Source: an uncultured archaeon (lineage in GTDB: Archaea > Aenigmatarchaeota > Aenigmatarchaeia > PWEA01 > JAGHBM01). Taken from it: a stretch of DNA of 64,000 nucleotides. The stretch lies in assembly GCA_964640225.1 (NCBI GenBank), contig CAZXFI010000001.1, positions 119,321 to 183,320 of the forward strand, given 5' to 3'. The notes below the pieces were generated by a model. The model did no database searches and was not told where the DNA came from. It saw nothing but the letters and a program-made list of their open reading frames with translations. Of the stretch, positions 18,909 to 63,804 are shown piece after piece. Positions within the stretch are counted from its first letter, which is position 1. Every line of letters starts with the position of its first letter. Both the position numbers and the translations under genes were made by a program.

Positions 18909-19325
18909 ATGTACGAATTCATAGAAGACCTGACCTCAGACGTGATGTTCGTGGCCGAGGCCCCGGACCTAGCTTCGCTTCTAGAGGAGTCCGCCAGGGC
19001 CCTTTTTGACGTGGTTTGCAACCGCAAGGCCGTAGAACCAAAAGAGAATGTACGGATTGTAGTAGAAGCCGAAACTCCTGAAAAACTCCTGTACGAATGG
19101 TTGTCACGGCTGCTCACCGAGTCTGATTCCAACGAGCTTTTCTTTTCAGAATTTCAAGTCTCTGTTTCGGAGCAGGATGGCAAGCTCGTGGCCAGGGGCG
19201 AGGCTTTGGGAGAACCTTACTCACAAGAGAAAAGCGGAACAGTGGTCAAGGGCATAACCCTGTACGGCTTTGAGGTGGAAAAAACAGAAAAGGGCTACAG
19301 GGCAAGGGTGGCCTGCGATATCTGA
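18909..19325 (+). CDS. Archease (RtcB activator)
   Basis: MYEFIEDLTSDVMFVAEAP...LFDVV matches the archease family. The start was taken at the internal Met of the track ORF (18897). Confidence 0.8.
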   Translation: MYEFIEDLTSDVMFVAEAPDLASLLEESARALFDVVCNRKAVEPKENVRIVVEAETPEKLLYEWLSRLLTESDSNELFFSEFQVSVSEQDGKLVARGEALGEPYSQEKSGTVVKGITLYGFEVEKTEKGYRARVACDI

Positions 19326-19332
19326 TGTTAAT

Positions 19333-20289
19333 TCAAATCACACCGCTTTCATCAATCGAGAACAGGTTATGTTCCGAATCCAGTGAGGCTTCGACGCACA
19401 AAGGAACTGTTATCATCGGGTCAGTATGACCGATATCCACTTCAGTTAGTACAGGAATGTCAATATTTTTCACGTGTTTGGTAATTATTTTCCGAAGTTT
19501 TATCCTTTCTTCTCTGCTGTATCCGTACCCTCTTCCAACTACAAGCCCCTTTATTACGTCAAAAACACCGTGATTTATCAAGTCCGTTATCTCAGAATCA
19601 ACGTACTCCAAAGGCTCTCCTTTCGTGAAATCCTGACCCTCCGGTATATCCAGAAAGAGTATTTTGTTTTTGTAATTAAGTTCAAATTTTGTTCCATTTA
19701 ATTTAATGATGGACGGTAGGCATCCTCCGACTATCTGACCTTTGACCGAACCGGGATTGACCCATACGAATCCGTTATTTGTATTCATTTTTCTTGGCCT
19801 CTTGGTATCTTCTTTTCTGGACCAATCTAAGTTCTCGTCTGTCCACTCCCTTGAAGGTTCTATCCTCCCGACTTCCTGTGAAAGACATCTCAAAAAGTAT
19901 TTCATTGTATAATCAATCGGTCTCGGGAATTCTCCGAACTGGGTCATTGCCGCCGGACCGTAAAATGTCACAAGACCTGCCATTTTATTGAAAGCGTGAT
20001 GAAGTATTGTTATATCAGAATATCCGCAAAATATTTTTGGGTTCTTTCTGATAATACCGTAATCTATACGATTGACAAGCTCATTGGAGGAAAGTCCTCC
20101 TATATTACATACTATAGCTTTGACTTCGGTATCCGAGAAACAATCATGGATATCATCCAGTCTGTTCTGAATTGTCCCTGCTCTTCCGTCTAGAAACGTT
20201 CTTGTAGTTTTAAATTCCCTCGTCTTAAAGCCAAATTCCTTGATAGCTTTTTCGGCATTGTCGATTCTATGCTGAAAAAGTCCGCCCAA
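19333..20289 (-). CDS. LD-carboxypeptidase (peptidase S66, MccF/LdcA family)
   Basis: 318 aa with the S66 fold signature (GYSDITILHHAF, GHTDPMITVP). AT-rich. Confidence 0.7.
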   Translation of the reverse strand: MGGLFQHRIDNAEKAIKEFGFKTREFKTTRTFLDGRAGTIQNRLDDIHDCFSDTEVKAIVCNIGGLSSNELVNRIDYGIIRKNPKIFCGYSDITILHHAFNKMAGLVTFYGPAAMTQFGEFPRPIDYTMKYFLRCLSQEVGRIEPSREWTDENLDWSRKEDTKRPRKMNTNNGFVWVNPGSVKGQIVGGCLPSIIKLNGTKFELNYKNKILFLDIPEGQDFTKGEPLEYVDSEITDLINHGVFDVIKGLVVGRGYGYSREERIKLRKIITKHVKNIDIPVLTEVDIGHTDPMITVPLCVEASLDSEHNLFSIDESGVI

Positions 20290-20396
20290 GCCACTGGAAG
20301 GTGCTATAAAAGCAACAGTATCTCCTTTTTCAAGTTTTTTTGCCTTTAAAATTCAAACCACCTCCATAGATAAATAGAATAAACAAATTAATAACA

Positions 20397-21233
20397 TTAT
20401 TTTTTACCGATTACAAACAAATTGTTTCCTCTTCCAGAGGCATCCTCATTTAAAATCAATTCCTTCTCTATTGAAAAAATTTTTAGGTAGTTTTTGTTTG
20501 AAAGCAGGGTATCTATTTTTTTCGTGGAACCCTTCAATCTGGTCTCTTCGTATCCGGGATATAAAGACACAGGAAACCCGTACACTGATACGTTTTTTAA
20601 CCCGTTCTTTCTATAAATCTCTTTAATTCCGCTTGGTGTAAAAAATTTTATTTCAGGCATATCGTCGCAGAAAACTCCTGTCGATGTTTTAGATATTTTA
20701 TCTGAAGCGGAAATATTACCCTGAGTAAGATTAAAAAAAACTCCATGATACTTGTTAGGTACAACAGATATCAAGTAGCCTCCTTTCTTTAGAACTCTAT
20801 ACATCTCCGAGACAGCCTTCTCTGGGTTACATAAGAATCCCAAAACATTGTATAAATTTATCACGAGATCATATTCGCAATTTCTCTGGTCTATCATATT
20901 TTCAATATTTCCTATCACAATATCTGACCTTTCGTCCAATTTATTATGTTTTATCTTATCTTTTGCCACTCCTGTCATATCTTCCGAAATATCGTATAGA
21001 ATACCTTCGGAATTTTTAAAATTCTCCAAAATTTTAATAAACCACCTTCCCGTCCCGCCACCAGCGTCCAAAAATTTAAATTTTGATGTTTTTCTCATAT
21101 CTTCTAAAGCAAATCTATTTAGCAGGTACCATAGAAGTTTATCAGAAAGATTCCAATATATCTGTTTTTCCACTAGGTCATATTCAGTACACTTTTTTTT
21201 AAAATATTCTATAACATTTTTTTCTGAATACAT
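20397..21233 (-). CDS. Class I SAM-dependent methyltransferase
   Basis: Motif I FLDAGGGTGRWF, with motif II/post-I LYDISEDM. The start was moved to the internal ATG to avoid a 74-nt overlap with the upstream gene. Confidence 0.65.
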   Translation of the reverse strand: MYSEKNVIEYFKKKCTEYDLVEKQIYWNLSDKLLWYLLNRFALEDMRKTSKFKFLDAGGGTGRWFIKILENFKNSEGILYDISEDMTGVAKDKIKHNKLDERSDIVIGNIENMIDQRNCEYDLVINLYNVLGFLCNPEKAVSEMYRVLKKGGYLISVVPNKYHGVFFNLTQGNISASDKISKTSTGVFCDDMPEIKFFTPSGIKEIYRKNGLKNVSVYGFPVSLYPGYEETRLKGSTKKIDTLLSNKNYLKIFSIEKELILNEDASGRGNNLFVIGKK

Positions 21234-21240
21234 AAACCGG

Positions 21241-22377
21241 TTACACCCCCAATTCTTTATGTCCTCTTGGAAATGATGAAACAGACCATATAAAATTAAG
21301 TTTGAGCAAACCATGTATCAGTCTTTCCCAACCCATACCGAATCCTGAAGTTGTTTCGTAGTTGGGCAAAGTTCTGGATATCAAATAGGGTTCATAATCT
21401 TTTCTAGGTAGATTGAAAATTTCAGCTTTATACTCCAGCTCATTTACGGTTCTTACCCTCCGGCCACTGCCAATTATTTCCCTGTATCCCGGCCATATAA
21501 CATCCGCATTCTGGGAAGTTTTTGGGTCTGAACCGTCTACAACAGCGTGATAAAATGAAACCTCTAGTAAAGGGAACTCCTTAATGGCTACGATAGACCC
21601 TAAAATTTCTGTAATCTTTACTTCTTCCCACGGACCAAAATATTTTAAAGTGAATTTTCTGTATTTTTCGTTTCCCGTATGAGTATACAATAAATCCAAT
21701 GCTTCCTTGAAAGTTATTTCCTTTATTTTATTCTTCTTCGACATTGACTTCAATTCAAGCAAATCTTCGTCTGTAATGAAATACAAAAGATCGGGAGAAT
21801 TTTTCTTTATACAGTCCTTTAGAAATTTAGACAAGAGACCCCACAGAATATCCATATTCTGGGACTGATTTACATTGCCTTCATATTCTATGTGATGGAA
21901 TTCAGACAAATGCGTGGAATCTGCCCTTTCCTTTCTAAATGAATTGTAGATGGAAAAAACGTGGCTCAAATTTTTCTGAAGAAGAGTCAGCTCTAGATAA
22001 ATTTGGGAAGATTCGGAAAGAAATACCTTATCGGGCAAGTCGAACCAGTTGAGAGTTATTGGGCAAGTGTCTGTAGTATAATCTATTTTCTCCTTACCAT
22101 AAACAGCGCCTGGAGACGATATCATTCTGGTTGTCAGCGGAAGTGGTACAAATGTAGCACCCATTCCATCGAAATACTCTACCGACGAGATGAACAATCT
22201 ACTGTTTATTCTGGATAAGTGTGACCACACCCCATTTTCTGGAAAATCTTTTACTCTTTTCAGAACTTCGCTTGAGGCCGGATACGAGTAATTTGAAACA
22301 TTCTTTAGAGAATTAAAGATTTTATTTCCCCTGTAAGATATGGTACCGTCATTGTTTGCGGTGTACGGGCCTAACAT
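21241..22377 (-). CDS. Class IIb aaRS catalytic-core paralog (AsnRS/AspRS/AsnA-like) lacking an N-terminal anticodon-binding domain
   Basis: 378 aa. Motif 2-like FRKERADSTHLSEFHHIEYE and motif 3-like TSGFGMGWERL are present. Only about 50 aa precede motif 1, so there is no OB-fold. AT-rich. Confidence 0.6.
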   Translation of the reverse strand: MLGPYTANNDGTISYRGNKIFNSLKNVSNYSYPASSEVLKRVKDFPENGVWSHLSRINSRLFISSVEYFDGMGATFVPLPLTTRMISSPGAVYGKEKIDYTTDTCPITLNWFDLPDKVFLSESSQIYLELTLLQKNLSHVFSIYNSFRKERADSTHLSEFHHIEYEGNVNQSQNMDILWGLLSKFLKDCIKKNSPDLLYFITDEDLLELKSMSKKNKIKEITFKEALDLLYTHTGNEKYRKFTLKYFGPWEEVKITEILGSIVAIKEFPLLEVSFYHAVVDGSDPKTSQNADVIWPGYREIIGSGRRVRTVNELEYKAEIFNLPRKDYEPYLISRTLPNYETTSGFGMGWERLIHGLLKLNFIWSVSSFPRGHKELGV

Positions 22378-22397
22378 ACAATGTGTTAATTTTTATA

Positions 22398-23624
22398 CTA
22401 TAAATTTTCAATTTCAGATATTATGGCGCTTTCTGGAATAGTCTTGCTACTGTTTCCTTTTCTAAAAACGACAGAATTAGTCTCCAATTCCTTATCGCCA
22501 ACTATAATCATTCTGGGAACTCCTATATCATCATATGTCTTGATTTTTTCTCCCATAGTTTTTTTTCTGTCTTCCCAAACGACATCAAATCCGTTGTTTT
22601 TCATTTCTTGGTGTATCTCTCCGCATTTTTTTTCCTGGGCAATTGTATTGTTGACGGAAAACACTACAACGTCATAAGGCACTAATTCATTTGGCCATTT
22701 TATACCAAATCCGCTTCTGTTTTGTTCAGCAACTGAATGTAATATTCTTGAGACACCTAAAGCATAAGTTCCGAGATGAAAGTAATTTTTGTTGAAATTG
22801 CTATCTTGAAACTGCGCGTTAAATTTAAGGGAATACCTGTCGTTCTCTTTCATTATACATCCAAGTTCTATTCCCTGAGATATGATAAATTTTTCGTTGC
22901 ATCCATCACAAAAGTTTTCGTCCCTGTAAATAATTTTCTTGCCGCAGTCGCAAGAACCTATTTTAGTATCTCCCTCGTCAGAAATCGATAGGAATGTTGT
23001 ATAACCATCCCTTTTTTCAAGTGCTATTGTCTCCAAATCCAGACGAGAGAAAATTCTGTCGAATGTTTCAAAAAATAACGAAGAACTTTCGTCCAAACCT
23101 TCCTTACTTGAATCTATACTATAAGATTCCAGCATTCTAAAAACATTTGTCCTAACTATACCATGCTTCGCCCCCTTATCATCTCTAAATTTGTCGGCAA
23201 TCTGATAAAAACGGGTCGGCAACTGTTTATAAGAATGTATTAAATTTTTAGCAATCGTCGTGGCAACTTCTTCGTTTGTGGGAGATAGCACATATCTGGA
23301 ATCTCCTATGCCATATCTACCTTTAGTAAAAATCATCGATTTATTGAATTGTTCGTCTCTGCCGCTTTTTTCCCAGTAGAAATAAGGTTGCAAAGGCGGT
23401 AAATATATTTCCTGTATATCACTCTTTCCCATCTCTTCCCTCATGATTTTTTCCAGTTTGTTGATTATTTTTTGCCCGATTGGAAAATACGAATACATTT
23501 TATGGTCATCGAACGGGTAATTTATAATTGAAATTTTTTCTAAAAGTTCGTATGTAGACGGCTCTTTGATATCGTTTATTTTCTTCTCTGACCAGAGCAT
23601 TCTCGATGCCCTCATATTTACCAT
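22398..23624 (-). CDS. Compact bacterial-type prolyl-tRNA synthetase-like protein (class IIa, no INS editing domain)
   Basis: 408 aa. There is strong collinearity with the bacterial ProRS catalytic domain (LSPTNEEV..., YKQLPTRFYQIADKFRDD, VRTNVFRMLESYS) and a class IIa anticodon-binding C-terminus. AT-rich. Confidence 0.65.
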   Translation of the reverse strand: MVNMRASRMLWSEKKINDIKEPSTYELLEKISIINYPFDDHKMYSYFPIGQKIINKLEKIMREEMGKSDIQEIYLPPLQPYFYWEKSGRDEQFNKSMIFTKGRYGIGDSRYVLSPTNEEVATTIAKNLIHSYKQLPTRFYQIADKFRDDKGAKHGIVRTNVFRMLESYSIDSSKEGLDESSSLFFETFDRIFSRLDLETIALEKRDGYTTFLSISDEGDTKIGSCDCGKKIIYRDENFCDGCNEKFIISQGIELGCIMKENDRYSLKFNAQFQDSNFNKNYFHLGTYALGVSRILHSVAEQNRSGFGIKWPNELVPYDVVVFSVNNTIAQEKKCGEIHQEMKNNGFDVVWEDRKKTMGEKIKTYDDIGVPRMIIVGDKELETNSVVFRKGNSSKTIPESAIISEIENL

Positions 23625-23739
23625 ATAAAAATGATTACAAAATCTATTTATTCTTTAGAAATACTTTATTAGTATCGCGTGTGCCCGGCATTGAGATGCA
23701 AACGGGCGCAGGCTTTTTTCTGCGCTTAGTTTCATGTAG

Positions 23740-25194
23740 GTGATGTTTATGAAAGACAAGATGGAAAAAATCAGCGAAGTCAAGTGGAGAATCCCCAAGA
23801 GCTTCAGGAAGGAAATGCGGACCGACTGCATGGTTTACGGGAACGAATACGTAATAAAGCAGGTGGAGGAGGACGCGCTCCGCCAGCTGACAAACGTGGC
23901 CTGCCTTCCCGGGGTAGTTGAGCCCGTGATAGGTGCCCCGGACATACACTTCGGCTACGGCCTTCCCATGGGGGCCGTGGGGGCCTTTGACAAGGACGAG
24001 GGAGTTATATCTGCCGGATGCACGGGGTTTGACATAAACTGCGGCATTCGCATGATTAAAACAAACCTCACCAAAGATGAGGTCCGGAAAAGGATACGCA
24101 TACTTATAGACGTCCTGTTCCGCAACGTGCCATGCGGAGTCGGGGCAAAGGGAAAGCTCCGCCTCAATTACGACCAGCTGGAAGAGGTGCTTACCCGGGG
24201 TGCCGGGTGGGCCCTGGACAACGGCTACGCGGTAGAGGAGGACCTGGAGCACATGGAGGAGAACGGGTGCATGGAAGGGGCCGACCCGGAGAAGGTAAGC
24301 GACTCCGCCATGAAAAGGGGGCTACCGCAACTGGGAACCTTGGGCGCGGGAAACCACTTCCTTGAGGTACAGGCCGTGGACGAAATCTTCGACGAAGAGA
24401 CTGCCAGGGCCTTCGGCCTGGAAAATCCCGGGCAAGTCGTTATTATGCTCCACTGCGGCTCGCGCGGCTTCGGCCACCAGGTGGCCTCGGACTACCTGAA
24501 GGTTCACGAGAAGGCCGCCAAAAAGTACAAAATCTGGCTGCCGGACCCCCAGCTCGTGTGCGCCCCCACCACCTCAGAGGAGGGCCAGGACTACTATTCC
24601 GCTATGAAATGCGCCGTGAACTACGCCTTCACCAACAGGACCGTGATGACCAAGTGGATAAGGGACTCATTTGAGGAGGTTTTTGACCGGGAGTGGGAGG
24701 ACATGGACATGCGCACGATTTACGACGTGTGCCACAATATATGCAAGAAAGAGAAGCACAAAATTGAGGGCAAGGAAAAGGAGCTTTACGTTCACAGGAA
24801 GGGTTCAACCCGCGCACTTCCTCCGGGCCACCCGCTGAACCCGAAGTCCTACGCAAAAACGGGACACCCGGTGCTTATAGCGGGCTCAATGGGCACCGCA
24901 TCCTACATACTCGTGGGAAGCAACAAGTCCGAGGAAAGTTTTTACAGCACGTGCCACGGCGCGGGCCGCGTCATGTCAAGGCACCAGGCCCTCAAAACGT
25001 TTTTCGGGGAAAAGGTAAAGCAGGAGCTCATGGACAAGCAGAAGATTTACGCAAAGGCCACCCACGGCAAGGTCCTCTCCGAGGAGGCCCCCGGCGTTTA
25101 CAAGAACATAGACCAGGTGATAGAGTCTGTGCACCAAGCCGGAATCTCCCTGAAGGTGGCCAGGATGGTACCCTTGGGAGTGGCCAAGGGATAA
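23740..25194 (+). CDS. rtcB: tRNA-splicing ligase RtcB
   Basis: 484 aa with the conserved RtcB metal and GTP-binding motifs (GFDINCG, HCGSRGFGHQV, NHF). Confidence 0.9.
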   Translation: MMFMKDKMEKISEVKWRIPKSFRKEMRTDCMVYGNEYVIKQVEEDALRQLTNVACLPGVVEPVIGAPDIHFGYGLPMGAVGAFDKDEGVISAGCTGFDINCGIRMIKTNLTKDEVRKRIRILIDVLFRNVPCGVGAKGKLRLNYDQLEEVLTRGAGWALDNGYAVEEDLEHMEENGCMEGADPEKVSDSAMKRGLPQLGTLGAGNHFLEVQAVDEIFDEETARAFGLENPGQVVIMLHCGSRGFGHQVASDYLKVHEKAAKKYKIWLPDPQLVCAPTTSEEGQDYYSAMKCAVNYAFTNRTVMTKWIRDSFEEVFDREWEDMDMRTIYDVCHNICKKEKHKIEGKEKELYVHRKGSTRALPPGHPLNPKSYAKTGHPVLIAGSMGTASYILVGSNKSEESFYSTCHGAGRVMSRHQALKTFFGEKVKQELMDKQKIYAKATHGKVLSEEAPGVYKNIDQVIESVHQAGISLKVARMVPLGVAKG

Positions 25195-25341
25195 ATAAGA
25201 AACGTGTTTAAACTTACTTAAATAAAAGATTAATAGAAACGAACAATTATTTAAGTTTTATAATTTATTATTAAACGAGGTGGTTTTATTAACGACCCGA
25301 GTTATTCATATCAGTTAAATAAAAGAAATGGAAAAGACGTA

Positions 25342-25410
25342 ATGAAAATTTACGGCTCCTTTGAGGGGGGATTTGACGGTTGTGGAAGCCATACACATGG
25401 ATTTAGTTAG
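25342..25410 (+). CDS. Candidate 22-aa Cys/Gly-rich precursor peptide (MKIYGSFEGGFDGCGSHTHGFS)
   Basis: Small ORF found by eye 18 nt upstream of the radical-SAM/SPASM gene on the same strand. There is no homology support. Confidence 0.25.
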   Translation: MKIYGSFEGGFDGCGSHTHGFS

Positions 25411-25428
25411 TTATTTTAAAGTGAACTT

Positions 25429-26769
25429 ATGAATAGTCCGTGGTTTGAAAAAAAATATTCCAAATTAGTTGAAAATGTAATTCCATTAATATTAAAAGTG
25501 AAAAATAAAGATTATAGAGTTTTTTTGGATTCAAGTACAGGAGCTTGGGTTTATTCCTCTTTGAATAAAAATAAAGACAATTTTACTGAAGCTGAAAAGG
25601 AATTTTTGTATAAAAGAGGTATGGTAAAAGATAAAGAAGGTAATTATGTAGAAATAGAAAGACCTAAAATACAAAAATGCTCTCCTTCCAGCTTTGTACT
25701 GAACCTTACTTTAAATTGTAACTTAAGTTGCAAATATTGTTTTGCTGAAGCTTCAACCGATTTTAAAAAACCGAATATTATTAAAGAAGATGTAATAAAA
25801 AGAACCGTGGATGAGATTTCAAAGGTACCGCATAAAAGAGTTAGGTTAGAATTTCAAGGAGGGGAGCCGCTAATCGCAAAGGATAGTCTCTTTTTTGCAT
25901 TAAATTACGCAAAAGAAAAAATAAAAAGCAAATCTATAACGTTCGGAATGGAAACTAATGGTACATTAATTGATGAAGAAACTGTTAAATTATTAGAAAA
26001 ATTTAATTTTACAATTGGTATAAGTATAGATGGTCCTGAGAAAATTCATGACCTAGCCCGTGTATACCCCAACGGAAAGGGTAGCTTTCAAGAAACAGAA
26101 GCTGGATTAGATTTACTTATAAAATCAAAAAAACTCAAAGAAAAACTAGGTTCTATAGTAGTAGTAGGTAAACATAATTGTAATAGACCAAAGGAAGTTG
26201 TTGAATATTTTAATAAAAAAAATATTACATTTAAACCCATACCCGCTAATCCTGCCGGTAGAGCAACAGAAAATATTGTAGCTACTTCAGAAGAATATTA
26301 TAACTTTTTTATAAAAGCGTATGAATATAGTGAAAAATTAAAATTAAAAAATATAATGTCTTATGTTTTCAATATGAATGTTTATACTCCCTTAAGGGAC
26401 TATATATGCCTAAGGTCTCCTTGTGGTATGGGTAATGAGATAATATCAATAAATCCCGATGGTTCTGTAAGACCTTGTGATGGATTTAAATCAAACCCTG
26501 AATTTGAAATTGGTAATATTTTAAATGAAGACCTCTCTGATATATACTCTAAAGAAAAAACCAAAAAATTATCTTCTAGAAGTTTTAAAGATATAGAAAA
26601 ATGCTCAAAATGTAATTTCAAAGGAATGTGTGGTCCTTGTGCGTATGCTTCTTATGGTCTTTTTGGAAGTATATACAGAGAAGATCCAAAATGTCTAGCC
26701 AAAAGAAAAATTTTCATATATTTAATGAAAAGATATATAGAAAGGTCAGAAAATAAAAAACGTGATTAA
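25429..26769 (+). CDS. Radical SAM enzyme with C-terminal SPASM domain and an N-terminal RRE-like extension of about 95 aa
   Basis: CNLSCKYC (CxxxCxxC) at about residue 100. C-terminal Cys cluster CSKCNFKGMCGPCAYAS. AT-rich. Confidence 0.75.
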   Translation: MNSPWFEKKYSKLVENVIPLILKVKNKDYRVFLDSSTGAWVYSSLNKNKDNFTEAEKEFLYKRGMVKDKEGNYVEIERPKIQKCSPSSFVLNLTLNCNLSCKYCFAEASTDFKKPNIIKEDVIKRTVDEISKVPHKRVRLEFQGGEPLIAKDSLFFALNYAKEKIKSKSITFGMETNGTLIDEETVKLLEKFNFTIGISIDGPEKIHDLARVYPNGKGSFQETEAGLDLLIKSKKLKEKLGSIVVVGKHNCNRPKEVVEYFNKKNITFKPIPANPAGRATENIVATSEEYYNFFIKAYEYSEKLKLKNIMSYVFNMNVYTPLRDYICLRSPCGMGNEIISINPDGSVRPCDGFKSNPEFEIGNILNEDLSDIYSKEKTKKLSSRSFKDIEKCSKCNFKGMCGPCAYASYGLFGSIYREDPKCLAKRKIFIYLMKRYIERSENKKRD

Positions 26770-27333
26770 ATGAAGAACACTATTATTTTTGATATGAACT
26801 CTACACTTGATAATGATTCAGAAATGGAGATAAATATAATATCAGAAATCATAAAAAATAAAAATCCAATGAAAATATATGTTGAATTGGTTAGGAACGA
26901 TTTAAAGCATCCCGACTGGGACTACAAGGAAATAGTTGAAAAAACCTTTGAAAAATACGTTGAAGACCCTCAAAAATCCGCTGAATTTTTCATAAAAAAC
27001 AAGAAAGTGCGTGTGAGAAAATTCTTTGTTGACTTTATTAATGAAAATTTTAAAAAATACAGATTTTTTGTGGTGTCAAAAGAAAACGAGGAATTGGTGA
27101 AAGCAAAGCTTAAAGAGGCCGATTTACTGGACAAATTTGAGGGTGTATTTAGAATACAGAAGCCTTCTGTGGAAGGACTTGAAAAAATACTTTTGAAAAA
27201 CAATATAAAACCAAGTGAATGTACGTTCGTTGGGGATGACCCGCTGTTGGATTTATTGCCTGCCAAAGCCCTCGGGATGAAAACCGTTCTCGTAAATTCT
27301 TTCGTTGATGAAACATGGAAAATAGAAAAATAA
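26770..27333 (+). CDS. HAD-superfamily hydrolase-like protein
   Basis: C-terminal FVGDDPLLDLLPAKALGMKTVLV resembles HAD motifs III/IV. 187 aa. Confidence 0.4.
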   Translation: MKNTIIFDMNSTLDNDSEMEINIISEIIKNKNPMKIYVELVRNDLKHPDWDYKEIVEKTFEKYVEDPQKSAEFFIKNKKVRVRKFFVDFINENFKKYRFFVVSKENEELVKAKLKEADLLDKFEGVFRIQKPSVEGLEKILLKNNIKPSECTFVGDDPLLDLLPAKALGMKTVLVNSFVDETWKIEK

Positions 27334-27887
27334 TAATTGAAAAAATCTATACTAATAAATTAAATACATTTATTAAAGGAGATATTTTTTCTGGAAAAAC
27401 TTATTTTTTATCTGAAATACTAGATTATATTCAAGATAAAAAAGAAAGGGTTTTTTATATTGATACTACAACGGAGGAAAATGAAAAATCTCTGATTAAC
27501 CAGAGGGAATTAAAATCCTTAAAAATAACTGATAAAATAAAAGAAAGTGAAATTCTCAACAACATTAACTCAAACTTTATAGACATTTCATATAATCTAG
27601 AAAGAAATTTGGAGTTTTTAGAAAAGGGTGATAATGAAAATGCAGAAAAATATAGAAAAAAACAAAAAACTATTTTAAACAATTTAATTTCAATTTTTAA
27701 TAATCAAGAAAATTTATTTCTATTGTTTGATGAAGTAGATATATCACCATATGATTTATCAAATAAAAATGTGTATATCGCTACTGGGCATAAGGAAACG
27801 GAAAATGAAAAATTTGATATAACATTGGAGCTAGAAAAAACGAAAATAGTTAATGTAAACCAAAATGGTTTGAAGAATCTCGCCTGA
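27315..27887 (+). CDS. Small P-loop NTPase
   Basis: Walker A GDIFSGKT and Walker B LFLLFDEVD. 190 aa. Confidence 0.4.
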   Translation: MENRKIIIEKIYTNKLNTFIKGDIFSGKTYFLSEILDYIQDKKERVFYIDTTTEENEKSLINQRELKSLKITDKIKESEILNNINSNFIDISYNLERNLEFLEKGDNENAEKYRKKQKTILNNLISIFNNQENLFLLFDEVDISPYDLSNKNVYIATGHKETENEKFDITLELEKTKIVNVNQNGLKNLA

Positions 27888-28027
27888 AGTCCTCATCCGT
27901 TGCCGGCCTCATCACTAATCAGATGGTCTTTTGCACGTAGAACCAGTTTTGGCGTCCCCCTAAACCACGATGCCTCTAGATAAAATCAGTTTCTGCTAAG
28001 GTTTAGAGTCTTAAAATCAATTTAGAA

Positions 28028-28790
28028 CTATATCTCTATTTCCAAACCGTCATAAGCCACTTCAAAATTGCCCATTTTCCTGACTTTCTTTCGCAAATCC
28101 GCGTGCCTTTGGTGGTGATTCAAGTGGGTGAGATATGTTTTCCCGGCCCCTATTTCCTTCGCGAATTTAACAGAATTTTTCACCGAGAAATGCCCTTTTG
28201 AATTTCCTTTGTAAAAATCCTTTGTGGAATCTATTATCAGTATGTCCGATTTTTCTATCTTATTCCTTTGCTTCACGCCGCAACAATCTGGGGCGTAGAC
28301 AACTTTCTTTCCTTTCACCTTGAATATGAAACCCAATGTAAAAATTGAATGCTCCGCGGCAAAATAATCTATTTCCAGACCGCCTATCCTCAGGTTTCTC
28401 CTGATGGGCTTGAACTTCAAGACTTTGTCAAACGTCCAGGGATATTTCCCCTTCACCACCCGGAATATCCTTCTCTTTGTATACAAATCAATCCTTTTTT
28501 TTGTTTATTTTATATATCTCATTAAGGTCGTCCAGCCCTCCTATGTGGTCTTCGTGTGCATGCGTTATAAGAATGGCGTCTATCCTGGTCAGGTTTTCCT
28601 TGAGGGCCTGCTGGTGAAAATCCGGAGAAACGTCAACCAGTATGTTCTTTCCTTTGTTCTTTATCAGCAGGGAAGGCCGGGTTCTTGTGTCTTTTCTGTC
28701 CTTGCTTTTGCAAACCCTGCATTTGCACCCTATTCTTGGCAACGGCCATGCAGAACTTGTTCCCAGGAATTTTATTTTGGCCATATTCAA
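28028..28790 (-). pseudogene. Metallo-beta-lactamase-fold hydrolase interrupted by a frameshift in a T8 homopolymer
   Basis: ORF 28488-28790 carries THAHEDHIGG (HxHxDH). ORF 28028-28486 carries the C-terminal MBL motifs (H...DCCG). The frames abut at a run of 8 T at about 28494-28501. Confidence 0.55.
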
Positions 28791-28834
28791 TTATTTTATA
28801 CCAATAGTATAAAAACAGTCTCTTCAACGGAAAA

Positions 28835-29266
28835 TTAGTATATTTTCTCAATTCTACAATTACCAAGATAACTCATCAAACCAGAATAATTATCAGTATA
28901 GACATATGATTGTGGCGGAGTAAAATTAAATTCCGACTTTAATTTGCTCAAGGGTATTCCCTGCTCTAATTTATAAAGGTGATTTATTGGAAAAGCGTAT
29001 TTAGATACTTTTAAACCATTATTAAATTCATAATTTCCTATTCCATTTTCTGGAATCTTTCCCGGATATTTAATTGGGTTTCCAATCTCAATAATATATT
29101 GTAATTCACATATCGGTTGTGTAACGTATATTAAAATTTGTTTTATCGGGTCTTTGGGTACATACTTTCTAAATTCATATGTTTTTTTTCTTGTTGATAT
29201 TAAATTTGCAAACTTGGGTTTCAAACTTAAAATTATTTTCCTTCTTTTTTGTTCAATCATTTTCAA
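28835..29266 (-). CDS. ASCH-domain (PUA-like) protein
   Basis: ILSLKPKFANLISTRKKTYEFRKY matches the ASCH core. Confidence 0.4.
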   Translation of the reverse strand: MKMIEQKRRKIILSLKPKFANLISTRKKTYEFRKYVPKDPIKQILIYVTQPICELQYIIEIGNPIKYPGKIPENGIGNYEFNNGLKVSKYAFPINHLYKLEQGIPLSKLKSEFNFTPPQSYVYTDNYSGLMSYLGNCRIEKIY

Positions 29267-30290
29267 GAACCTCCATAAGGTAATATATTGAATAACTTCT
29301 AAAAAGTTTATATGACTCTTCCAACCATGAAATGGTTTCCATAAAAATTTTCTTCAACCCGTCCTCCCCAAATTTCTTTTTAAACTCACTATAATTAACT
29401 AAATATTGTGGGAGATACTTATATGCATTCTTTTTAACATACAAAGATTTAGATAGTTTAGCACCAGACCAATCTAGAATTAGAGGTGCGTAAACTATTT
29501 GAGGTAACTTATAGGCAGGTATTCCTAAAAGTGATGCTGACCTATAAAGTAGCTGTTCCTGATAGTAACCTGAAAAATCACTTCCAGTTACCCTTATCCA
29601 CTCAAAAGATTTTTTTGAATTTTGATTATCTTTACTATAAACAATAGCTCTTATAAGATTTCTCAAAGGAGTATTATATTCAAACCTCTCTGAATTCTTG
29701 TCGAAAAAAGTTTCAAAAAAACCATGCTTAGGACAATAAGATCTTATTTTATTCTCAAAATATTTGTTTTTAATTCCTCTTTTATCTGTTAAACCACACT
29801 TCGGACAAGCTACTCTCATTCTTAGTAAACCAGTTTGGGGTTGAAGGATCGGGCCAATAGTTTCTCTATGTTTAACTATATTTTTTAAAATCCCAGGTAT
29901 CTCTGATTGAGAATTAAATTTACTTTGTCTTCTAATAGAATAATCAATTCCGGTAAAACCTTTTAACAGCTTTAATAACTCAAAGTATTCTTCAAGATAA
30001 ATATCTACAACTTTATCTCCTCTTAGACTAACTTGATAATACATTCCGTTAACTTTCTTTAATTTGGAGGGAGCCGTGTCTACAATCTCAAAAAATATTT
30101 CAGGTTCAATTTTTGTATCTTCTAAAAATTTCTTTCCTAGAGCGTATGCTAAGCAAAACACTATTAAAGTCCCGAAGTGAGGGGAAGAATTTGGTTGAGC
30201 ACCTATACTTATTCTTACTCTTTTTTTAGAAATATTTTTAGCTAAATACTTTACATAATCTTTCTTAAAAACATATGAACCTGCACCAAG
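29253..30290 (-). CDS. Class I aaRS catalytic-domain paralog (archaeal/eukaryal TrpRS/TyrRS-like). It has no anticodon-binding domain, and its start codon is uncertain.
   Basis: HIGH-region GAQPNSSPHFGTLIVF resembles the archaeal TrpRS signature G.GPSS...H.GHLIPF. KMSKS-like GAKLSKS lies about 55 aa from the C-terminus. A Zn-ribbon-like CPKCG...CPKHG is present. The track ORF starts at an internal GTG (30161). The aaRS-like frame continues upstream to a stop near 30330 with no ATG, GTG or TTG. Confidence 0.5.
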   Translation of the reverse strand, partial: LGAGSYVFKKDYVKYLAKNISKKRVRISIGAQPNSSPHFGTLIVFCLAYALGKKFLEDTKIEPEIFFEIVDTAPSKLKKVNGMYYQVSLRGDKVVDIYLEEYFELLKLLKGFTGIDYSIRRQSKFNSQSEIPGILKNIVKHRETIGPILQPQTGLLRMRVACPKCGLTDKRGIKNKYFENKIRSYCPKHGFFETFFDKNSERFEYNTPLRNLIRAIVYSKDNQNSKKSFEWIRVTGSDFSGYYQEQLLYRSASLLGIPAYKLPQIVYAPLILDWSGAKLSKSLYVKKNAYKYLPQYLVNYSEFKKKFGEDGLKKIFMETISWLEESYKLFRSYSIYYLMEVLEND

Positions 30291-30426
30291 AGGATGATGA
30301 ACTACTCCGTCATGTAATATTTTTTTTTAATTTTTTACCTTTGTTCTCTGACACAATAATTATATAAAAAATTAAACTTATAAAATTAAAAATTACTACA
30401 TTACCTTTCTAAAGTAAAGAATTTGT

Positions 30427-31554
30427 TTAATCCTTCAGCACGAACTTGTCCAGCTTCTTCCTTGCCTTCTCCCTCTTTTCCTGGTGGCCCTTAAGGAAGG
30501 CGTTTATCCTTTCCGTGAGCTCCTTCTTGCAGTCCCCGCAAACCCTTTTGCCTGACCTGCACTCTTTCCGTATCTCTTCAAGCTTTTCATCGTCCTGCTC
30601 AAAAAAGAAGTAGAAATACTTGTAAATGGAGCAAACCTCGTAGTTGCCTCCCTTTTCCTTCTGCTCCTTGAGGCTTCCCCTGCCTCCCGTGAAGGCGTTC
30701 CACACCTTGCTTTTCACGACATCGGGCTTGTCCGTGGTGAAAATGCAGGAGCCGGGCTCCGAGGCCGACATCTTACCTTCCCCGGAAAGGCTTGGTATGA
30801 ACTTGGAGTGTATTATTGAGGGCTTGTAGTACCCGAGCTTCGGCAGGACATCCCTGGCCACCCTGAAGTGCGGGTCCTGGTCTATTGCTAGCGGTATTAA
30901 ACAGGGCACGTTTTTGCCTTTCTTAACAGAGGGTAGGAAAGCGGGAACCGCCTGCATGCTGGTGAAGAATATCTGTCCCACGTTTGACTCGTTTTTGAAG
31001 CCAAATACAGCCTTGGCCGTGGAAAAGGTTATTTTCTTGGCCACGCGAACAGCCTGTGGGTATAGCTCCCCGCAGTAGTCCATATCGGAAAATATGAAAG
31101 TCTTCCCCTCTTTGAAGCCCAGAGCTATCAGGTCCAGGGCGTTCTCGTAAGCAAACCTATTGGCCTCTTCCGGCTCCAGCTTGTCGTTGAACAGGAACTT
31201 CTCGTCGTCCGTAAGCTGGAACCACAGCTCCGTGTCAAACTTGTCCTGAAGCCATTTTGTGAAAATCCAGGGCATTAGATGGCCCAGATGCGTGTGCCCG
31301 GAAGGCCCGCGGCCAGTGTAAAGGTAGAATTCCTTTCCCTTCTCGTGCTGGTCAAGAATCCAGTCAAAATCCCTGTGGCAGAAGAAAATACCCCTTCTCA
31401 GGAAAGGGTGAAGTTCGCCTGTGTGCTTTTCAAGCCTCTGAAGAAGCTTCTTTGAAATGGGTTTGGTGCCAAACTCCTTTATAAGCCTGTCATAATCCAG
31501 CTTCCCCGAGACTTTCCACGGGGTGACTTTCATTTTGCTAGCTTCCGTGCTCAT
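30427..31554 (-). CDS. trpS: Tryptophanyl-tRNA synthetase (archaeal/eukaryal type)
   Basis: VTPWKVSG..., GRGPSGHTHLGHLMPW, KMSASEPGS. 375 aa and GC-rich. Confidence 0.85.
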   Translation of the reverse strand: MSTEASKMKVTPWKVSGKLDYDRLIKEFGTKPISKKLLQRLEKHTGELHPFLRRGIFFCHRDFDWILDQHEKGKEFYLYTGRGPSGHTHLGHLMPWIFTKWLQDKFDTELWFQLTDDEKFLFNDKLEPEEANRFAYENALDLIALGFKEGKTFIFSDMDYCGELYPQAVRVAKKITFSTAKAVFGFKNESNVGQIFFTSMQAVPAFLPSVKKGKNVPCLIPLAIDQDPHFRVARDVLPKLGYYKPSIIHSKFIPSLSGEGKMSASEPGSCIFTTDKPDVVKSKVWNAFTGGRGSLKEQKEKGGNYEVCSIYKYFYFFFEQDDEKLEEIRKECRSGKRVCGDCKKELTERINAFLKGHQEKREKARKKLDKFVLKD

Positions 31555-31614
31555 AAGAAAAATAAGGTGAGAAGAAAATATAAAACGTTATCTGGAGTCA
31601 CATCCTGAATAAAT

Positions 31615-32472
31615 TCAATGTTGGTCTATTTTTTTAATTTCTTCTTTACTCATTTCATAGAATTTGTTTTTAAATCTTTCAAGCCTCTCGTCTTCAAATT
31701 CAAAGCTATCCAATTCATCCAGATAATCGTTTGCCATTTTTTTCGCATATCCCTTTATATCCTTTCCCTTCTGTTTTAGTATCGTAAGGGGCGTAGATGT
31801 TCCATTCTTCATGTCGTCCTTTATATCATCCATATCTTTCCTGATTGTACCTATTGCCCTGTTTTTCCTTCCAACCTCAACTATGTCTTTGCTCTCCTTT
31901 CTCTTCATGTCATAACCCAGGTCAATAAGAGGCAACGTGACAAACGGGTCCATTACTATTGACCTTGTGTCATAAAATTTTTTGGAGTAGCTAAGAATTT
32001 CCTCATCGTTTTTCGCTGTAGTGAGTTTGTGGGACAAGTCAACTTCGGTGCCCCCTATAGTAACCATTTTATCATAGAAATATTTTCCAATTACATCTCT
32101 CTGTTTATCGGACAATTTAAGGTATTTCCCCATTCCCAGTCCAATAGAACAAACTAGAGTTGACATAAAGCCAAATCTGTTTAACTTACTTAGTTCTTCG
32201 TCCAAAAGCTCGTCTATACTCCCAACCATTGAATCGACGACCACAGAAGTCTTTGCAACAGAATCAGGGTACTCGTTTCCCATGGCTTTTCTGACGTCAT
32301 CGGTTCTGGATGTCTTTTCACCGTTATTCCATCTATACCAAATGTCTCCGGCAATATCGTAAGTTTTATAAACAGTATCAATAGAGTCTTCAACACCCAA
32401 GTTTTTGGTTATTTTCAAGGCGCCGGTTCTGTCATCCAAAACTTCTTTATAAATTTGCTGCGAGTTTTTCAT
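31615..32472 (-). CDS. Hypothetical protein with Asp-rich motifs, possibly isoprenoid-related
   Basis: 285 aa. DMDDIKDD and D-rich segments are present. It sits next to the UbiA, IDI and GGPPS genes. No confident family assignment. Confidence 0.3.
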   Translation of the reverse strand: MKNSQQIYKEVLDDRTGALKITKNLGVEDSIDTVYKTYDIAGDIWYRWNNGEKTSRTDDVRKAMGNEYPDSVAKTSVVVDSMVGSIDELLDEELSKLNRFGFMSTLVCSIGLGMGKYLKLSDKQRDVIGKYFYDKMVTIGGTEVDLSHKLTTAKNDEEILSYSKKFYDTRSIVMDPFVTLPLIDLGYDMKRKESKDIVEVGRKNRAIGTIRKDMDDIKDDMKNGTSTPLTILKQKGKDIKGYAKKMANDYLDELDSFEFEDERLERFKNKFYEMSKEEIKKIDQH

Positions 32473-32634
32473 ATAAAACTATAGGTTGTGAAACTATTTA
32501 AAATCATACTATTTTTACTACTGTTTAGTTATTTTTTTACTTACTTTTGAAATATTCACAAATACACGACTTTTGTCGTAGAAAGCCATTTTTAGACTAT
32601 AAAATTTATATCATAATCTCTTAATTATCAAGGT

Positions 32635-33519
32635 ATGGAAAGGTTCTTCTCTAATATTATGAGGAAATATGGAACCAGACTAACTTTTTTAGAAATAACG
32701 AGGCCTTGGAATGCAGTTGCTCCGGGGCTTTTAGGATTTTTGGGTTATTTGCTTGGCGGGGGGAACAATCCTTTTGAAATTGCAATGATTTTCTCTTTGT
32801 TTTTTTTCGCTTACATGGCGGCATCAACCGTGAATGACATATATGATGAATTTATAGACAAAATAAACATGCCTTACCGCCCGCTACAAGAAGGTAGAAT
32901 CAAAAGAAAATCCGCATTCAACTTGTCGTTGGCACTTCATATAATAACCCTTATCATGGGATTTACCTTGGGGTGGAGGGCTTTTTTATTGTCTATATTG
33001 GTTCTTTTACTTAGTTTCATATATTCGGCGCCTCCCATTGCTTTCAGCAGAAGGGGTGTTGCCAGCCAGATAGAACTTTCAATAACCATGTGTTTTATAC
33101 CTTTATTGACCGGTGTAATACTTTCGCTGAATAGCTTTCTTGTACCGCTAAATGTTTTATTTTTCATAGCTTCTTTGACTTCAATTTTTGTTTTTATTTT
33201 TATAATAAAGGATTTTAAGGATGTATTCGGGGATAAAACATATAATAAAAAAACACTATTATTGCAGATAGGGAAGAAAAAAACGAAAATAATTTCCTTA
33301 ACTGGAAGCTTTATAAGTTTTATTTTAATCTTATATTTCTTTTACGAAATTTTTACGTTTAGCTTTATACAATCCTTAATTCTTCTTGTGATATTATCAG
33401 GCATACTATATCAAGAAATTAACGTGGAAAAGGACCCTGAGAAAACCTTTGGCTTGGCAAGGTTATTTGTAATGTTGATGCTACTCTCTCTTATGGCCAC
33501 TCCATTGGGATTTTTCTAA
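32635..33519 (+). CDS. UbiA-family prenyltransferase (for example DGGGP synthase-like)
   Basis: 294 aa polytopic membrane protein with NDIYDEFIDKIN (NDxxDxxxD). Confidence 0.7.
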   Translation: MERFFSNIMRKYGTRLTFLEITRPWNAVAPGLLGFLGYLLGGGNNPFEIAMIFSLFFFAYMAASTVNDIYDEFIDKINMPYRPLQEGRIKRKSAFNLSLALHIITLIMGFTLGWRAFLLSILVLLLSFIYSAPPIAFSRRGVASQIELSITMCFIPLLTGVILSLNSFLVPLNVLFFIASLTSIFVFIFIIKDFKDVFGDKTYNKKTLLLQIGKKKTKIISLTGSFISFILILYFFYEIFTFSFIQSLILLVILSGILYQEINVEKDPEKTFGLARLFVMLMLLSLMATPLGFF

Positions 33520-33520
33520 A

Positions 33521-34171
33521 TCATTCAGGATATTTCAAATATTTTTTAGGGTTGTCACCATAATCCTTTATTATTTTTACCTGTTTTTCTTTCAGTTTTT
33601 CCAAATCAAACAACTGCTCTTCCGTGATTTTGCTAAATTGCGGGTCTTCTCTAAGAATTTTGTTAGAAACGTTCATGAAAAGGCAGTGGTTTCCGTTTTG
33701 TGCGGTGCATTCCAGTTCAATGCCATTCATTAGAACTTCATGAAGCGCTGTACCCCCTCCGGCATTCATTCCCCTTACAAAATGGCAGACTCTAACCTTA
33801 GACGGGTAATAGAGCTTTGCAAGAGGGTTTTCTATATTCTTGAATTTAGAGAATTTCTTCTGTTTGAAACCCAGGGTCTTATAGTCACCGTAACCTATCA
33901 TCTCGGCAACATCCATTATCAGCTTATAGGTTTCTTCAAATTTTTTCAATTTCAAATCTTTCATATAATCCTTTGTGAAACAAAAACCTTCGTGCCACCC
34001 GTACATATAAACCCTTAGAATGCCATTTATGCCTTCCTTTAAGGCATCATCTGTAATGTCTTTCATTGTATGCATGGATATTATAGTTACGTTTTCCCTG
34101 GCGAATTTTATTTCACCCAATTCAAACTTCAGTTTACCTGACAGCAAAAGTTTGGTTAAAAAACCGTACAT
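33521..34171 (-). CDS. Hypothetical protein, possibly V4R-domain-like
   Basis: 216 aa. C-terminal RVCHFVRGMNAGGGTALHEV..ECTAQNGNHC resembles a V4R small-molecule-binding domain. Confidence 0.3.
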   Translation of the reverse strand: MYGFLTKLLLSGKLKFELGEIKFARENVTIISMHTMKDITDDALKEGINGILRVYMYGWHEGFCFTKDYMKDLKLKKFEETYKLIMDVAEMIGYGDYKTLGFKQKKFSKFKNIENPLAKLYYPSKVRVCHFVRGMNAGGGTALHEVLMNGIELECTAQNGNHCLFMNVSNKILREDPQFSKITEEQLFDLEKLKEKQVKIIKDYGDNPKKYLKYPE

Positions 34172-34176
34172 TTACC

Positions 34177-60372: not shown

Positions 60373-60394
60373 GGTTTTATTGTTCGTGAAGCGG
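59721..60394 (-). other. Archaeal rRNA intron in 23S domain IV (H69-H71 region, about E. coli 1950). Boundaries are approximate.
   Basis: An AT-rich block lies between exon sequence GGGACGAAAG (60395-60404, rc) and UCAGCGGUUAGCUUUACUGUAGC (rc of 59701-59720). Conserved 23S sequence resumes on both sides. Confidence 0.6.
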
Positions 60395-63688: not shown

Positions 63689-63804
63689 GGGCCGGTAGAT
63701 CAGTGGAAGATCGCCTGCTTTGCAATACGAAATAAGAATTTCGATGTTTCGTTTCGTAACGAAACAGCAGGAGGCCATGGGTTCAAATCCCATCCGGTCC
63801 ACCA
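63689..63804 (+). tRNA. tRNA-Ala(UGC) with a 41-nt canonical-position intron (63725-63765). The 3' CCA is encoded.
   Basis: Acceptor stem GGGCCGG/CCGGUCC includes the G3:U70 alanine identity pair. D-arm GAUC AGUGGAA GAUC. Anticodon stem CCUGC/GCAGG with loop UUUGCA|intron|A. T-arm AUGGG UUCAAAU CCCAU. The discriminator is A, followed by CCA. Confidence 0.8.

Follow-up and report, generated by a model that had tools for sequence, protein, structure and literature searches.

We analysed a 64,000-nucleotide stretch of archaeal DNA (contig CAZXFI010000001.1, positions 119,321 to 183,320; the whole stretch is called the window) and consider it highly probable that the genes at 25342-27887 are a local, minimal copy of a cassette for a RiPP (a peptide made by ribosomes and modified after its translation) that occurs in both archaea and bacteria and that we have not found described, that this copy was horizontally acquired, and that its enzymes, by their appearance, are intact. 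The cassette has four adjacent genes, all on the plus strand: a 22-codon open reading frame (ORF) for a precursor peptide (25342-25410, ending in the stop codon TAG), a 446-residue radical S-adenosylmethionine (radical-SAM)/SPASM enzyme assigned as a peptide maturase by its Pfam match and the family alignment (25429-26769), a 187-residue HAD-fold protein (26770-27333; Pfam HAD_2, 1.2e-13), and a 190-residue small ASCE-type P-loop NTPase (27315-27887); the last two, both conserved members of the cassette, directly abut or overlap their neighbors. The gene order peptide-radical-SAM-HAD-ATPase is the same in L003 (Pacearchaeota) and L046. All of the family-invariant residues are kept in the radical-SAM enzyme, the ATPase, and the HAD-fold protein of the window, and all three enzymes are full length. 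The peptide, MKIYGSFEGGFDGCGSHTHGFS, carries the family core as GFDGCGSHTH, preceded by MKIYGSFEG and followed by GFS, and 18 nucleotides separate its stop codon from the ATG of the radical-SAM gene at 25429, as a first-pass annotation made from the sequence alone had described. That annotation also proposed that the two genes are a precursor-maturase pair; the proposal is supported by the occurrence of the peptide in related loci, by codon usage in the core, and by a search in the reverse direction, that is, from peptide to enzyme.

A lone 22-codon ORF is not significant, as 121 ORFs of at least 20 residues overlap 22-31 kb of the window; we count the peptide ORF as a real gene because it is conserved in relatives and not because of its mere presence. 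The family core, G-[Y/F]-[D/E/N]-G-[C/F]-G-x-H-x-H, is ten residues long, has the typical form GYDGCGTHTHK, and usually is located at, or a few residues from, the C-terminus of the peptide; a typical precursor has 44 residues and ends in ...KIKISFGNKIGLGYDGCGTHTHK. A small ORF with the core is present in 37 of the 39 non-redundant loci that are anchored by the radical-SAM gene and have usable flanking sequence (34 of 36 loci from a genome scan together with L002, L046, and L047). The scan used one genome per GTDB species and returned 38 loci, one of which is a weak, unrelated radical-SAM protein; a six-frame motif search over the other 37 found the small core ORF in all but three (the contig of L014 starts at the radical-SAM gene, the radical-SAM gene of L040 is a fragment, and L038 does carry a core ORF). 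In the two nearest relatives with retrievable DNA, L002 and a Pacearchaeota metagenome-assembled genome (MAG), a small called gene directly upstream of the radical-SAM gene encodes ...KVRGSFEKGFNGCGSHTHQMI and ...KWSYYGFEGCGNHSHKD, respectively. Three more metagenome loci that we looked up have the same peptide-radical-SAM pairing, and L006 and L008 retain the peptide gene even though it is encoded on the opposite strand, at the other end of the cluster. Thus, the conservation of the small ORF that the first-pass annotation had named as its check is found, in frame, in relatives from both domains.

The codons of the core vary synonymously at each conserved residue: Gly uses three or four codons, and across the family His is encoded by CAC 18 times and by CAT 19 times and Cys by TGT 19 times and by TGC 16 times. 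Between the window and its closest relative, L002, the 15 core codons contain 8 synonymous and 2 non-synonymous differences. Because synonymous codons vary at residues that are conserved, the sequences indicate that the core is under protein-level selection. In six-frame translations of 589 kb (the window plus the loci), the motif occurs only at these peptide sites.

For the reverse direction, we back-translated GYDGCGTHTH to a DNA pattern and searched 241 million metagenome records. The search identified 43 metagenome stretches, and in 43 of 43 the motif is in a small ORF, usually a few residues from its end. A radical-SAM homologue is present in 31 of the 43 stretches; another six contain other cassette genes, with the contig or the stretch ending first; in three the contig ends at the peptide; and three are genuine orphans (L056/L067 and L086). 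The orphan precursor genes (L056:5522-5662, L067:5736-5876, and L086:1290-1424) have no radical-SAM or cassette gene nearby; their partner may be elsewhere in the genome, or the cluster may have been lost. The linkage is two-way because radical-SAM loci lead to the peptide and the motif search leads to the cluster; by these genomic comparisons, the peptide is genetically locked, in both directions, to one clade of radical-SAM/SPASM enzymes.

The family was not found described in Pfam, NCBIfam, or the literature that we searched and appears to be a distinct family and not a generic thioether RiPP. Five family peptides had no match in Pfam or NCBIfam even at E = 10, a full-text search of roughly 8 million papers did not return the core motif strings, and a topic search for DPANN or candidate phyla radiation (CPR) organisms with RiPP or SPASM returned nothing relevant. 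Between lineages, the only sequence that the leaders have in common is a beta-strand-like segment, K-[I/V]-x-x-S-[F/Y], immediately ahead of the core. In precursors of the Micrarchaeota type, Phe replaces the Cys of the core (GYDGFG[Y/S]HSH) and the C-terminal tails are longer; these precursors are located at L007:138-278, L012:7849-7980, and L047:313-456, that is, in three Micrarchaeota loci. In an archaeal subfamily (L005:7224-7658 and L044:4656-5090), the core GYDGCGAHTHK does not end a short peptide but belongs to a conserved 144-residue protein, in which about 25 residues separate it from the N-terminus; the cluster also has a C39-like peptidase and a methyltransferase.

The radical-SAM enzyme of the window matches the Pfam families Radical_SAM (PF04055, 2.1e-19, residues 92-257) and SPASM (PF13186, 1.2e-11, residues 332-396). 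The CxxxCxxC motif that had been placed near residue 100 is formed by C97, C101, and C104 (nucleotides 25717-25740) and is family-invariant, and the cysteines of the C-terminal SPASM cluster (residues 327-422, nucleotides 26407-26694) are likewise conserved: C327, C332, C350, C392, C395, C401, and C404 do not vary in an alignment of 30 family members, and C422 hardly does. The window protein keeps the residues at all 63 columns that are invariant in this alignment. The SPASM spacing is C332-x12-G-x4-C350, C392-x2-C395-x5-C401-x2-C404, and C422, plus C327; the last spacing is x2, vs the usual x3, and the seven-Cys set for two auxiliary [4Fe-4S] clusters is present. At E ≤ 1e-10 the enzyme has 894 homologues, the best 112 of which align with 80-100% of the query, its N-terminal 88 residues among them, at 37-57% identity; beyond these 112 the identity falls to about 30%.

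The NCBIfam matches of the enzyme are to peptide maturases and to the anaerobic sulfatase-maturating enzyme (anSME), with every score below the cut-off. The best score is for HxsB (TIGR03978; 185.4 bits vs a cut-off of 370), followed by DynA (181 vs 450), PapB (NF047865; 163.5 vs 340), anSME (TIGR03942; 162.1 vs 349.45), and QhpD (120.9 vs 453); YhhB, GrrM/OscB, AmcB, and FxsB score 123, 101, 90, and 88 bits, respectively (vs 445, 310, 425, and 370). The enzyme therefore falls below the cut-off of every model for anSME or a cofactor maturase, the assignments that had been named as those that would speak against a precursor-maturase pair. Its sequence is that of a peptide-maturase-type SPASM radical-SAM enzyme that would form its own clade, outside every curated maturase model.

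About 88 residues ahead of the radical-SAM core (residues 1-88, nucleotides 25429-25692) are conserved across the family as a family-specific domain. The AlphaFold2 model of the enzyme has a pLDDT of 84.7 and a pTM of 0.86, and residues 10-68 of the domain are predicted to form four strands and one helix. The best fold match of the model is CteB, followed by anSME, the triceptide synthase ChlB, TigE, and SuiB; by sequence, the matches to the solved structures of anSME (4k36, 107 bits) and CteB (105 bits) are a near tie. The fold alignment with CteB has about 460 columns, about 75 more than that with anSME, which has no such N-terminal domain, and appears to cover the N-terminal domain of the window enzyme. 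The domain has no Pfam PqqD/RRE match, and its profile had no match among PDB chains at E ≤ 10. Of the earlier suggestion that the extension has the size of a RiPP recognition element (RRE), then, a conserved domain that is predicted to fold remains; as it matches neither PqqD/RRE nor the PDB in sequence, 'RRE' is used here as a structural analogy, not as demonstrated membership. In the Bacilli/Tenericutes-type enzymes (518-541 residues; L017-L039, e.g., L022:7737-9320), this N-terminal domain, of about 75 residues, is duplicated in tandem and so present in two copies.

We clustered all ORFs within 5 kb of the radical-SAM gene in 37 non-redundant loci, the window included. The clusters are c0, the radical-SAM enzyme (37/37 loci); c1, a P-loop protein of about 200 residues (32/37); c2, the HAD-fold protein (30/37); c3, a protein of about 180 residues with a CGxxC motif and weak Peptidase_C39 matches (29/37); c4, a protein of about 690 residues that passes the NCBIfam HelD equivalog cut-off (508.7 vs 419; 26/37); and c5, a CbiH-like TP_methylase (9/37). 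The gene order is peptide-c0-c1-c4-c3-c2(-c5) in Bacilli and Tenericutes-like genomes, c0-c3-c2-c1 with the peptide on the opposite strand in CPR, and peptide-c0-c2-c1 in DPANN archaea; in Clostridia, c4 is divergent upstream. Because the gene order varies between lineages, the linkage is considered functional and not merely inherited. None of the arrangements in these loci has a conserved exporter or immunity gene, and neither a second radical-SAM enzyme (HxsC) nor a sulfatase, MftB, or MftD/E/F is among the conserved neighbors. HelD, the motor that recycles RNA polymerase, belongs to the cassette in Firmicutes and their relatives: it is found within or beside the bacterial clusters (L017-L039, e.g., L022:9949-12018), followed in nine loci by the CbiH-like TP_methylase, whereas the archaeal and CPR forms, the window's among them, have no HelD; tblastn with c3 (C39-like peptidase), c4 (HelD), and c5 (CbiH-like methylase) gave no match at E ≤ 0.01 anywhere within the 64-kb window. 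L003, L012, and L046 also have no peptidase, yet their leaders are full. The system is common in Pacearchaeota, Micrarchaeota, Paceibacterota, and Tenericutes-like Bacilli, and the core is also found in Firmicutes and in Bacteroidota-labelled MAGs; in DPANN genomes the cassette is located among housekeeping genes.

The genes downstream of the enzyme had been suggested to be tailoring or export remnants; the HAD-fold and P-loop genes are conserved members of the cassette, but no export gene is conserved in the family and the metallo-beta-lactamase (MBL) gene is unrelated. The latter, an MBL-fold gene split into two adjacent ORFs of 100 and 152 residues (28028-28790, minus strand), has no counterpart in any other radical-SAM locus and is located outside the cassette; it is two called genes in the Logan assembly as well and is probably a pseudogene or a shared sequencing error.

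The c1 ATPase has no Pfam or NCBIfam family. Its window copy contains the Walker A (G27-K28) and Walker B (D139-E140) residues and the family motifs D50, K58-S59, and D90..L95-E96. The AlphaFold2 model (pLDDT 73) has only generic RecA/KaiC/Rho/VirB4-like fold matches, with TM scores of about 0.45-0.5. With 107 clusters at E ≤ 0.001 among 1.84 billion representatives, the family is very small. The relatives of the window ATPase were obtained with an alignment-based search and HMMER, whereas a word-indexed search with its sequence alone returned only itself. About 15 of the 107 clusters have lengths of 340-390 residues, and the four that we read (P0151, P0163, P0176, and P0195) are fusions of c1 with the C39-like peptidase; this natural fusion suggests that ATP hydrolysis is tied to leader processing. 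The c2 HAD-fold protein keeps the nucleophile Asp (FDMN in the window), the Lys of a KP motif, and the acidic motif IV (DD); because the general acid at Asp+2 is replaced by N, S, G, or V across the family, c2 is not a standard phosphatase.

The cassette is probably foreign to the window, which is itself archaeal: the large-subunit (LSU) rRNA and the RNase P RNA in it are of archaeal type, and it also has an intron-sized tRNA. The GC content of most of the window is about 50%, and that of the four cassette genes is 23-32%; the flanking genes for RtcB (23740-25194) and TrpRS (30427-31554) have GC contents of 56.6% and 50.9%, and the cassette is located inside a 15-kb patchwork of low-GC genes. 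The junction between the RtcB and radical-SAM genes is also present in the Logan assembly of SRR7048225. The closest relatives are L002 (57% identity, 33.5% GC) and the Pacearchaeota MAG (45% identity, 29% GC, with the same gene order). Given the contrast between 23-32% GC in the cassette and 50-57% in its flanks, together with the 29-34% GC of the nearest relatives, horizontal acquisition of the cassette from a DPANN-like archaeon is most likely.

As a mechanism, we propose that the N-terminal domain of the radical-SAM enzyme would bind the beta-strand-like leader segment K-[I/V]-x-x-S-[F/Y] before the core, that the active site would abstract a hydrogen from a core residue, and that the SPASM clusters would assist in forming an intramolecular cross-link inside the ten-residue core; the two most likely links would be His-x-His (cyclophane-type) and Cys(Phe)-to-Asp. 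Where it is present, the ATPase-peptidase pair would cut the leader off after the invariant Gly. The product would be a modified peptide of roughly 10-13 residues with a Cys/His2 metal-binding-like triad; it is probably intracellular because no exporter is conserved. The first-pass annotation had favored thioether or cross-linked products; a thioether is unproven and, because Phe replaces Cys in three Micrarchaeota loci, a Cys thioether is not the universal chemistry of the family.

Known SPASM systems provide analogies for both links. The triceptide synthases link an aromatic residue, including C2 of His, to the beta-carbon of the residue two positions on, with the motifs HAA, HNR, HTK, and YDR (PMC11499958). 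By analogy, the invariant H-x-H could act as a three-residue cyclophane motif; the new core also has [Y/F]-[D/E/N]-G, but Y-D-G cannot form the canonical triceptide link because Gly has no beta-carbon. Like HaaB, YhhB, HtkB, and ChlB, the window enzyme is a SPASM radical-SAM protein, and ChlB is among its best sequence and fold matches; unlike them, the new family has a single copy of its motif and no repeats, its cassette includes the ATPase, the HAD-fold protein, and HelD, and the YhhB, GrrM/OscB, AmcB, and FxsB models are far below their cut-offs. For the second link, the [D/E/N]-G-C arrangement recalls the Cys-Asp thioethers of PapB and QhpD; PapB (ranthipeptides) and QhpD are SPASM radical-SAM enzymes that join the Cys sulfur to Asp or Glu side-chain carbons. 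In the new core, the residue at -2 from the Cys is likewise acidic or an amide, and the PapB and QhpD models are among the better-scoring matches of the enzyme; however, both are below cut-off, and the new peptide has one Cys (Phe in Micrarchaeota) and no CX3D repeats.

Other systems are similar in part. The alignment with HxsB of the His-Xaa-Ser system includes the N-terminal region (residues 41-443), and the target peptide is His-rich in both; however, the score is half of the cut-off, the new cassette has neither HxsC nor HxsD, and H-x-H occurs once, with no repeats. CteB, which acts on SCIFF, and anSME share the SPASM architecture with two auxiliary clusters, and CteB also has an N-terminal peptide-binding domain; the identities are only 19-24%, the new precursor has one Cys and not six, and there is no sulfatase substrate. 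The presumed leader processing is like that of peptidase-containing ABC transporters (PCATs) in coupling, and sometimes fusing, a C39-like peptidase (CGxxC) to an ATPase, with an invariant Gly before the presumed cleavage site; it is unlike PCATs in having no membrane domain or ABC signature, in its ATPase, a minimal RecA/KaiC-like ASCE fold, in the conservation of only the -1 Gly with no Gly-Gly pair, and in the absence of the peptidase from the window.

Several observations weigh against the interpretation of the window as a working RiPP-type cassette. Its support is genetic linkage, and both the modification of the peptide and the residue that would carry it are putative. The N-terminal domain, the putative peptide-binding element, has no sequence match to RRE/PqqD families or any PDB chain; the core Cys is not universal, which weakens any single-chemistry model; and the three orphan peptide genes are without an adjacent radical-SAM gene. 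The copy in the window itself may be inactive, as the C39-like peptidase, HelD, and the methylase are absent and a neighboring MBL gene is in two pieces; its precursor has a 10-residue leader, whereas the median in the family is 34; and neither ATG nor GTG nor TTG occurs at the position aligned with the start codons of the relatives or elsewhere in the open frame upstream of 25342.

What the product does is the first question on which readings divide. One answer, which refines the RiPP interpretation and to which we assign a probability just short of even, is that the product is a peptide-derived cofactor or intracellular effector, like mycofactocin or PQQ, and not a secreted antimicrobial. 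The core is nearly invariant over archaea, CPR, Firmicutes, and Bacteroidota-labelled MAGs and the leaders diverge, as for PqqA and MftA and unlike bacteriocins; the 37 loci have no conserved transporter or immunity gene; the system is common in lineages with reduced genomes; and in one subfamily the core is near the N-terminus of the conserved 144-residue protein. A comparison can be made with mycofactocin, in which a short precursor with an invariant C-terminal motif and an otherwise variable sequence is modified by a SPASM radical-SAM enzyme, also with no exporter. MftA ends in the invariant IDGXCGVY (PMC5264612), which shares a DG(x)CG element with the YDGCGTHTH of the new family; this resemblance to the DGCG of the core is, however, of four residues only. 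The new core ends in H-x-H-[K/Q], with no terminal Val-Tyr; the putative peptide-binding domain of the new enzyme is fused, whereas MftB, its possible analog, is separate; the new cassette has the P-loop ATPase, the HAD-fold protein, the C39-like peptidase, and HelD where mycofactocin has MftD/E/F; the taxa differ; and MftC is not in the top 25 NCBIfam matches of the window enzyme. Also unfavorable to a cofactor are the lack of a partner oxidoreductase or other cofactor-using enzyme that is conserved nearby, the resemblance of the ATPase and C39-like peptidase to bacteriocin-processing logic, and the linkage to HelD, which has no obvious place in this model.

A second question is whether the window copy is still in use, or whether it is a decaying remnant of a horizontally acquired element in which a precursor gene stripped of leader and start codon no longer yields a matured peptide or any peptide at all; this is a substantial possibility, although we lean against it. 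The evidence is in the upstream region in the frame of the peptide ORF (25256-25341, plus strand; read directly from the sequence and aligned with L002). From the ATG at 25342, ten residues precede the core aromatic residue, short of the 25-50 or so that were expected. The peptide frame is open upstream from 25264, and a TATA-like TTTTATAA (25256-25263) and a Shine-Dalgarno-like GAGGTGG (25277-25283) lie where they would be expected if translation began at 25288; a start at this position would yield a 40-residue peptide, a length as in the relatives, but the codon there is ATT. The upstream frame may be the remnant of an ancestral leader. The absence of a peptidase from the window, the split MBL gene, and the low-GC patchwork around the cassette also are consistent with decay. 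However, a second TATA-like element, TTAAATAAAA (25315-25324), precedes the ATG at 25342 with the same spacing as that of other apparently leaderless genes in the window; the core and the preceding K-I-x-G-S-F strand are intact, and the differences from L002 are mostly synonymous; the radical-SAM, HAD, and ATPase ORFs are full length with all family-invariant residues; and L003, L012, and L046 likewise lack the peptidase but have full leaders. Possible outcomes are expression of the 22-mer, translation of a 40-mer from a rare start codon, and a crippled gene.

HelD provides the case for a different product, that is, an antimicrobial RiPP directed at RNA polymerase, with the HelD of the cluster as self-protection; archaeal and CPR copies would do without HelD if their polymerases are not targets. 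HelD and HelR remove stalled RNA polymerase and shield it from rifamycins (bioRxiv 10.1101/2021.05.10.443488; PMC12802891; PMC8655204), and HelD is in or beside the cluster in 26 of the 37 loci, in at least three arrangements, and also in 18 of the 43 metagenome loci anchored by the motif. We judge this reading unlikely: no exporter is conserved, the core is invariant and not diversifying, and HelD is a common housekeeping factor, of which Firmicutes and Bacteroidia have multiple paralogues (PMC8655204), so its linkage could be regulatory or operonic. As a lead only, that most of the bacterial clusters include HelD suggests a connection of the product, or of the system, with transcription.

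That the cassette is an anti-phage defence system, with the radical-SAM enzyme as effector together with the ATPase and, in bacteria, the helicase, is very improbable. Weak PADLOC matches (pVip for the radical-SAM enzyme, 4.5e-20; mad8 for the ATPase, 5e-05; GajB/UvrD-like for the helicase) and the location of the window copy in a variable, foreign-looking region point in this direction; however, the matches are generic and at the superfamily level, the helicase is specifically HelD, an obligatory conserved peptide substrate is a hallmark of RiPPs, the DPANN cassettes are among housekeeping genes, and 2.9 million IMG/VR viral contigs contain no true homologue (two weak matches, at 22% identity). 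Finally, an anSME or other protein or cofactor maturase beside a chance small ORF can be dismissed, even though anSME is the top sequence match among solved structures and near the top by fold and 22-codon ORFs are abundant by chance, given a model score of 162 vs a cut-off of 349, an equally good match to CteB, a peptide that is conserved across domains with codon-level selection and two-way linkage to the enzyme, and, as the first-pass annotation had noted, no sulfatase nearby (the scan for sulfatase domains covered only ORFs at 19-35 kb of the window and found none).

The surroundings of the cassette are a mosaic (19300-34200) in which low-GC genes (23-40%) lie between host-like genes for RtcB, TrpRS, and a KaiC-like protein (from 34177). 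Low-GC neighbors were rejected as members of the system: the S66 (MccF-like) peptidase, the methyltransferase, the AsnRS-like, ProRS-like, and KLSKS-containing ORFs, the MBL fragments, and a 143-residue ORF were checked, and none recurs beside any radical-SAM homologue. Within this mosaic, a low-GC patch at 19333-23624 and 29253-30161, all on the minus strand, contains several paralogues that resemble tRNA synthetases: a catalytic core like that of AsnRS/AsnA but with no anticodon domain (21241-22377), a ProRS-like gene of bacterial type (22398-23624, 408 residues), and a 302-residue ORF with a KLSKS motif and no family match (29253-30161). The patch also contains an S66 LD-carboxypeptidase of the MccF-like family (19333-20289) and a methyltransferase ORF (20397-21314) that overlaps the end of the AsnRS-like ORF by 74 nucleotides; because of this overlap, the true start of the methyltransferase is probably further downstream, and its exact 305-residue sequence is not in the protein collection. 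One possibility is that these synthetase-like, S66, and methyltransferase genes provide resistance to, or synthesis of, an aminoacyl-nucleotide-type compound. Toward the end of the window, the archaeal LSU rRNA match (58793-62721, minus strand) spans 3929 nucleotides vs a model of 2987 positions, so the gene has about 940 nucleotides of insertions or introns; the intron-sized tRNA (63689-63801, plus strand, 113 nucleotides) was found by Rfam and missed by ARAGORN.

A core that is frozen across both domains, together with leaders that are free to vary, is the signature of a cofactor-like product and not of a bacteriocin, and the frozen core, the ATPase-peptidase module, the atypical HAD-fold protein, the lack of an exporter, and the HelD association are elements of the family that appear to be novel. 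For a precursor of 41-44 residues and one enzyme, heterologous co-expression is feasible and could reveal new radical-SAM chemistry on a Cys/His-rich decapeptide. The system is enriched in genome-reduced lineages (DPANN, CPR, and Tenericutes-like Bacilli), and keeping a cluster of 4-6 genes in such genomes implies an important role. For the window archaeon, a compact foreign cassette among native archaeal genes fits the passage of genes from a symbiont of the DPANN type to its host. In its broadest form, which we offer tentatively and as on balance unlikely, the family would make an ancient, cross-domain, peptide-derived small molecule, with the core GYDGCGTHTH unchanged between DPANN archaea and gut Firmicutes, by new radical-SAM chemistry with an ATPase-coupled peptidase and an atypical HAD-fold protein; this molecule would be an intracellular metal-binding cofactor or a ligand of the transcription machinery, which would account for the linkage to HelD in bacteria, kept preferentially by ultra-small symbionts and passed to the archaeon of the window.

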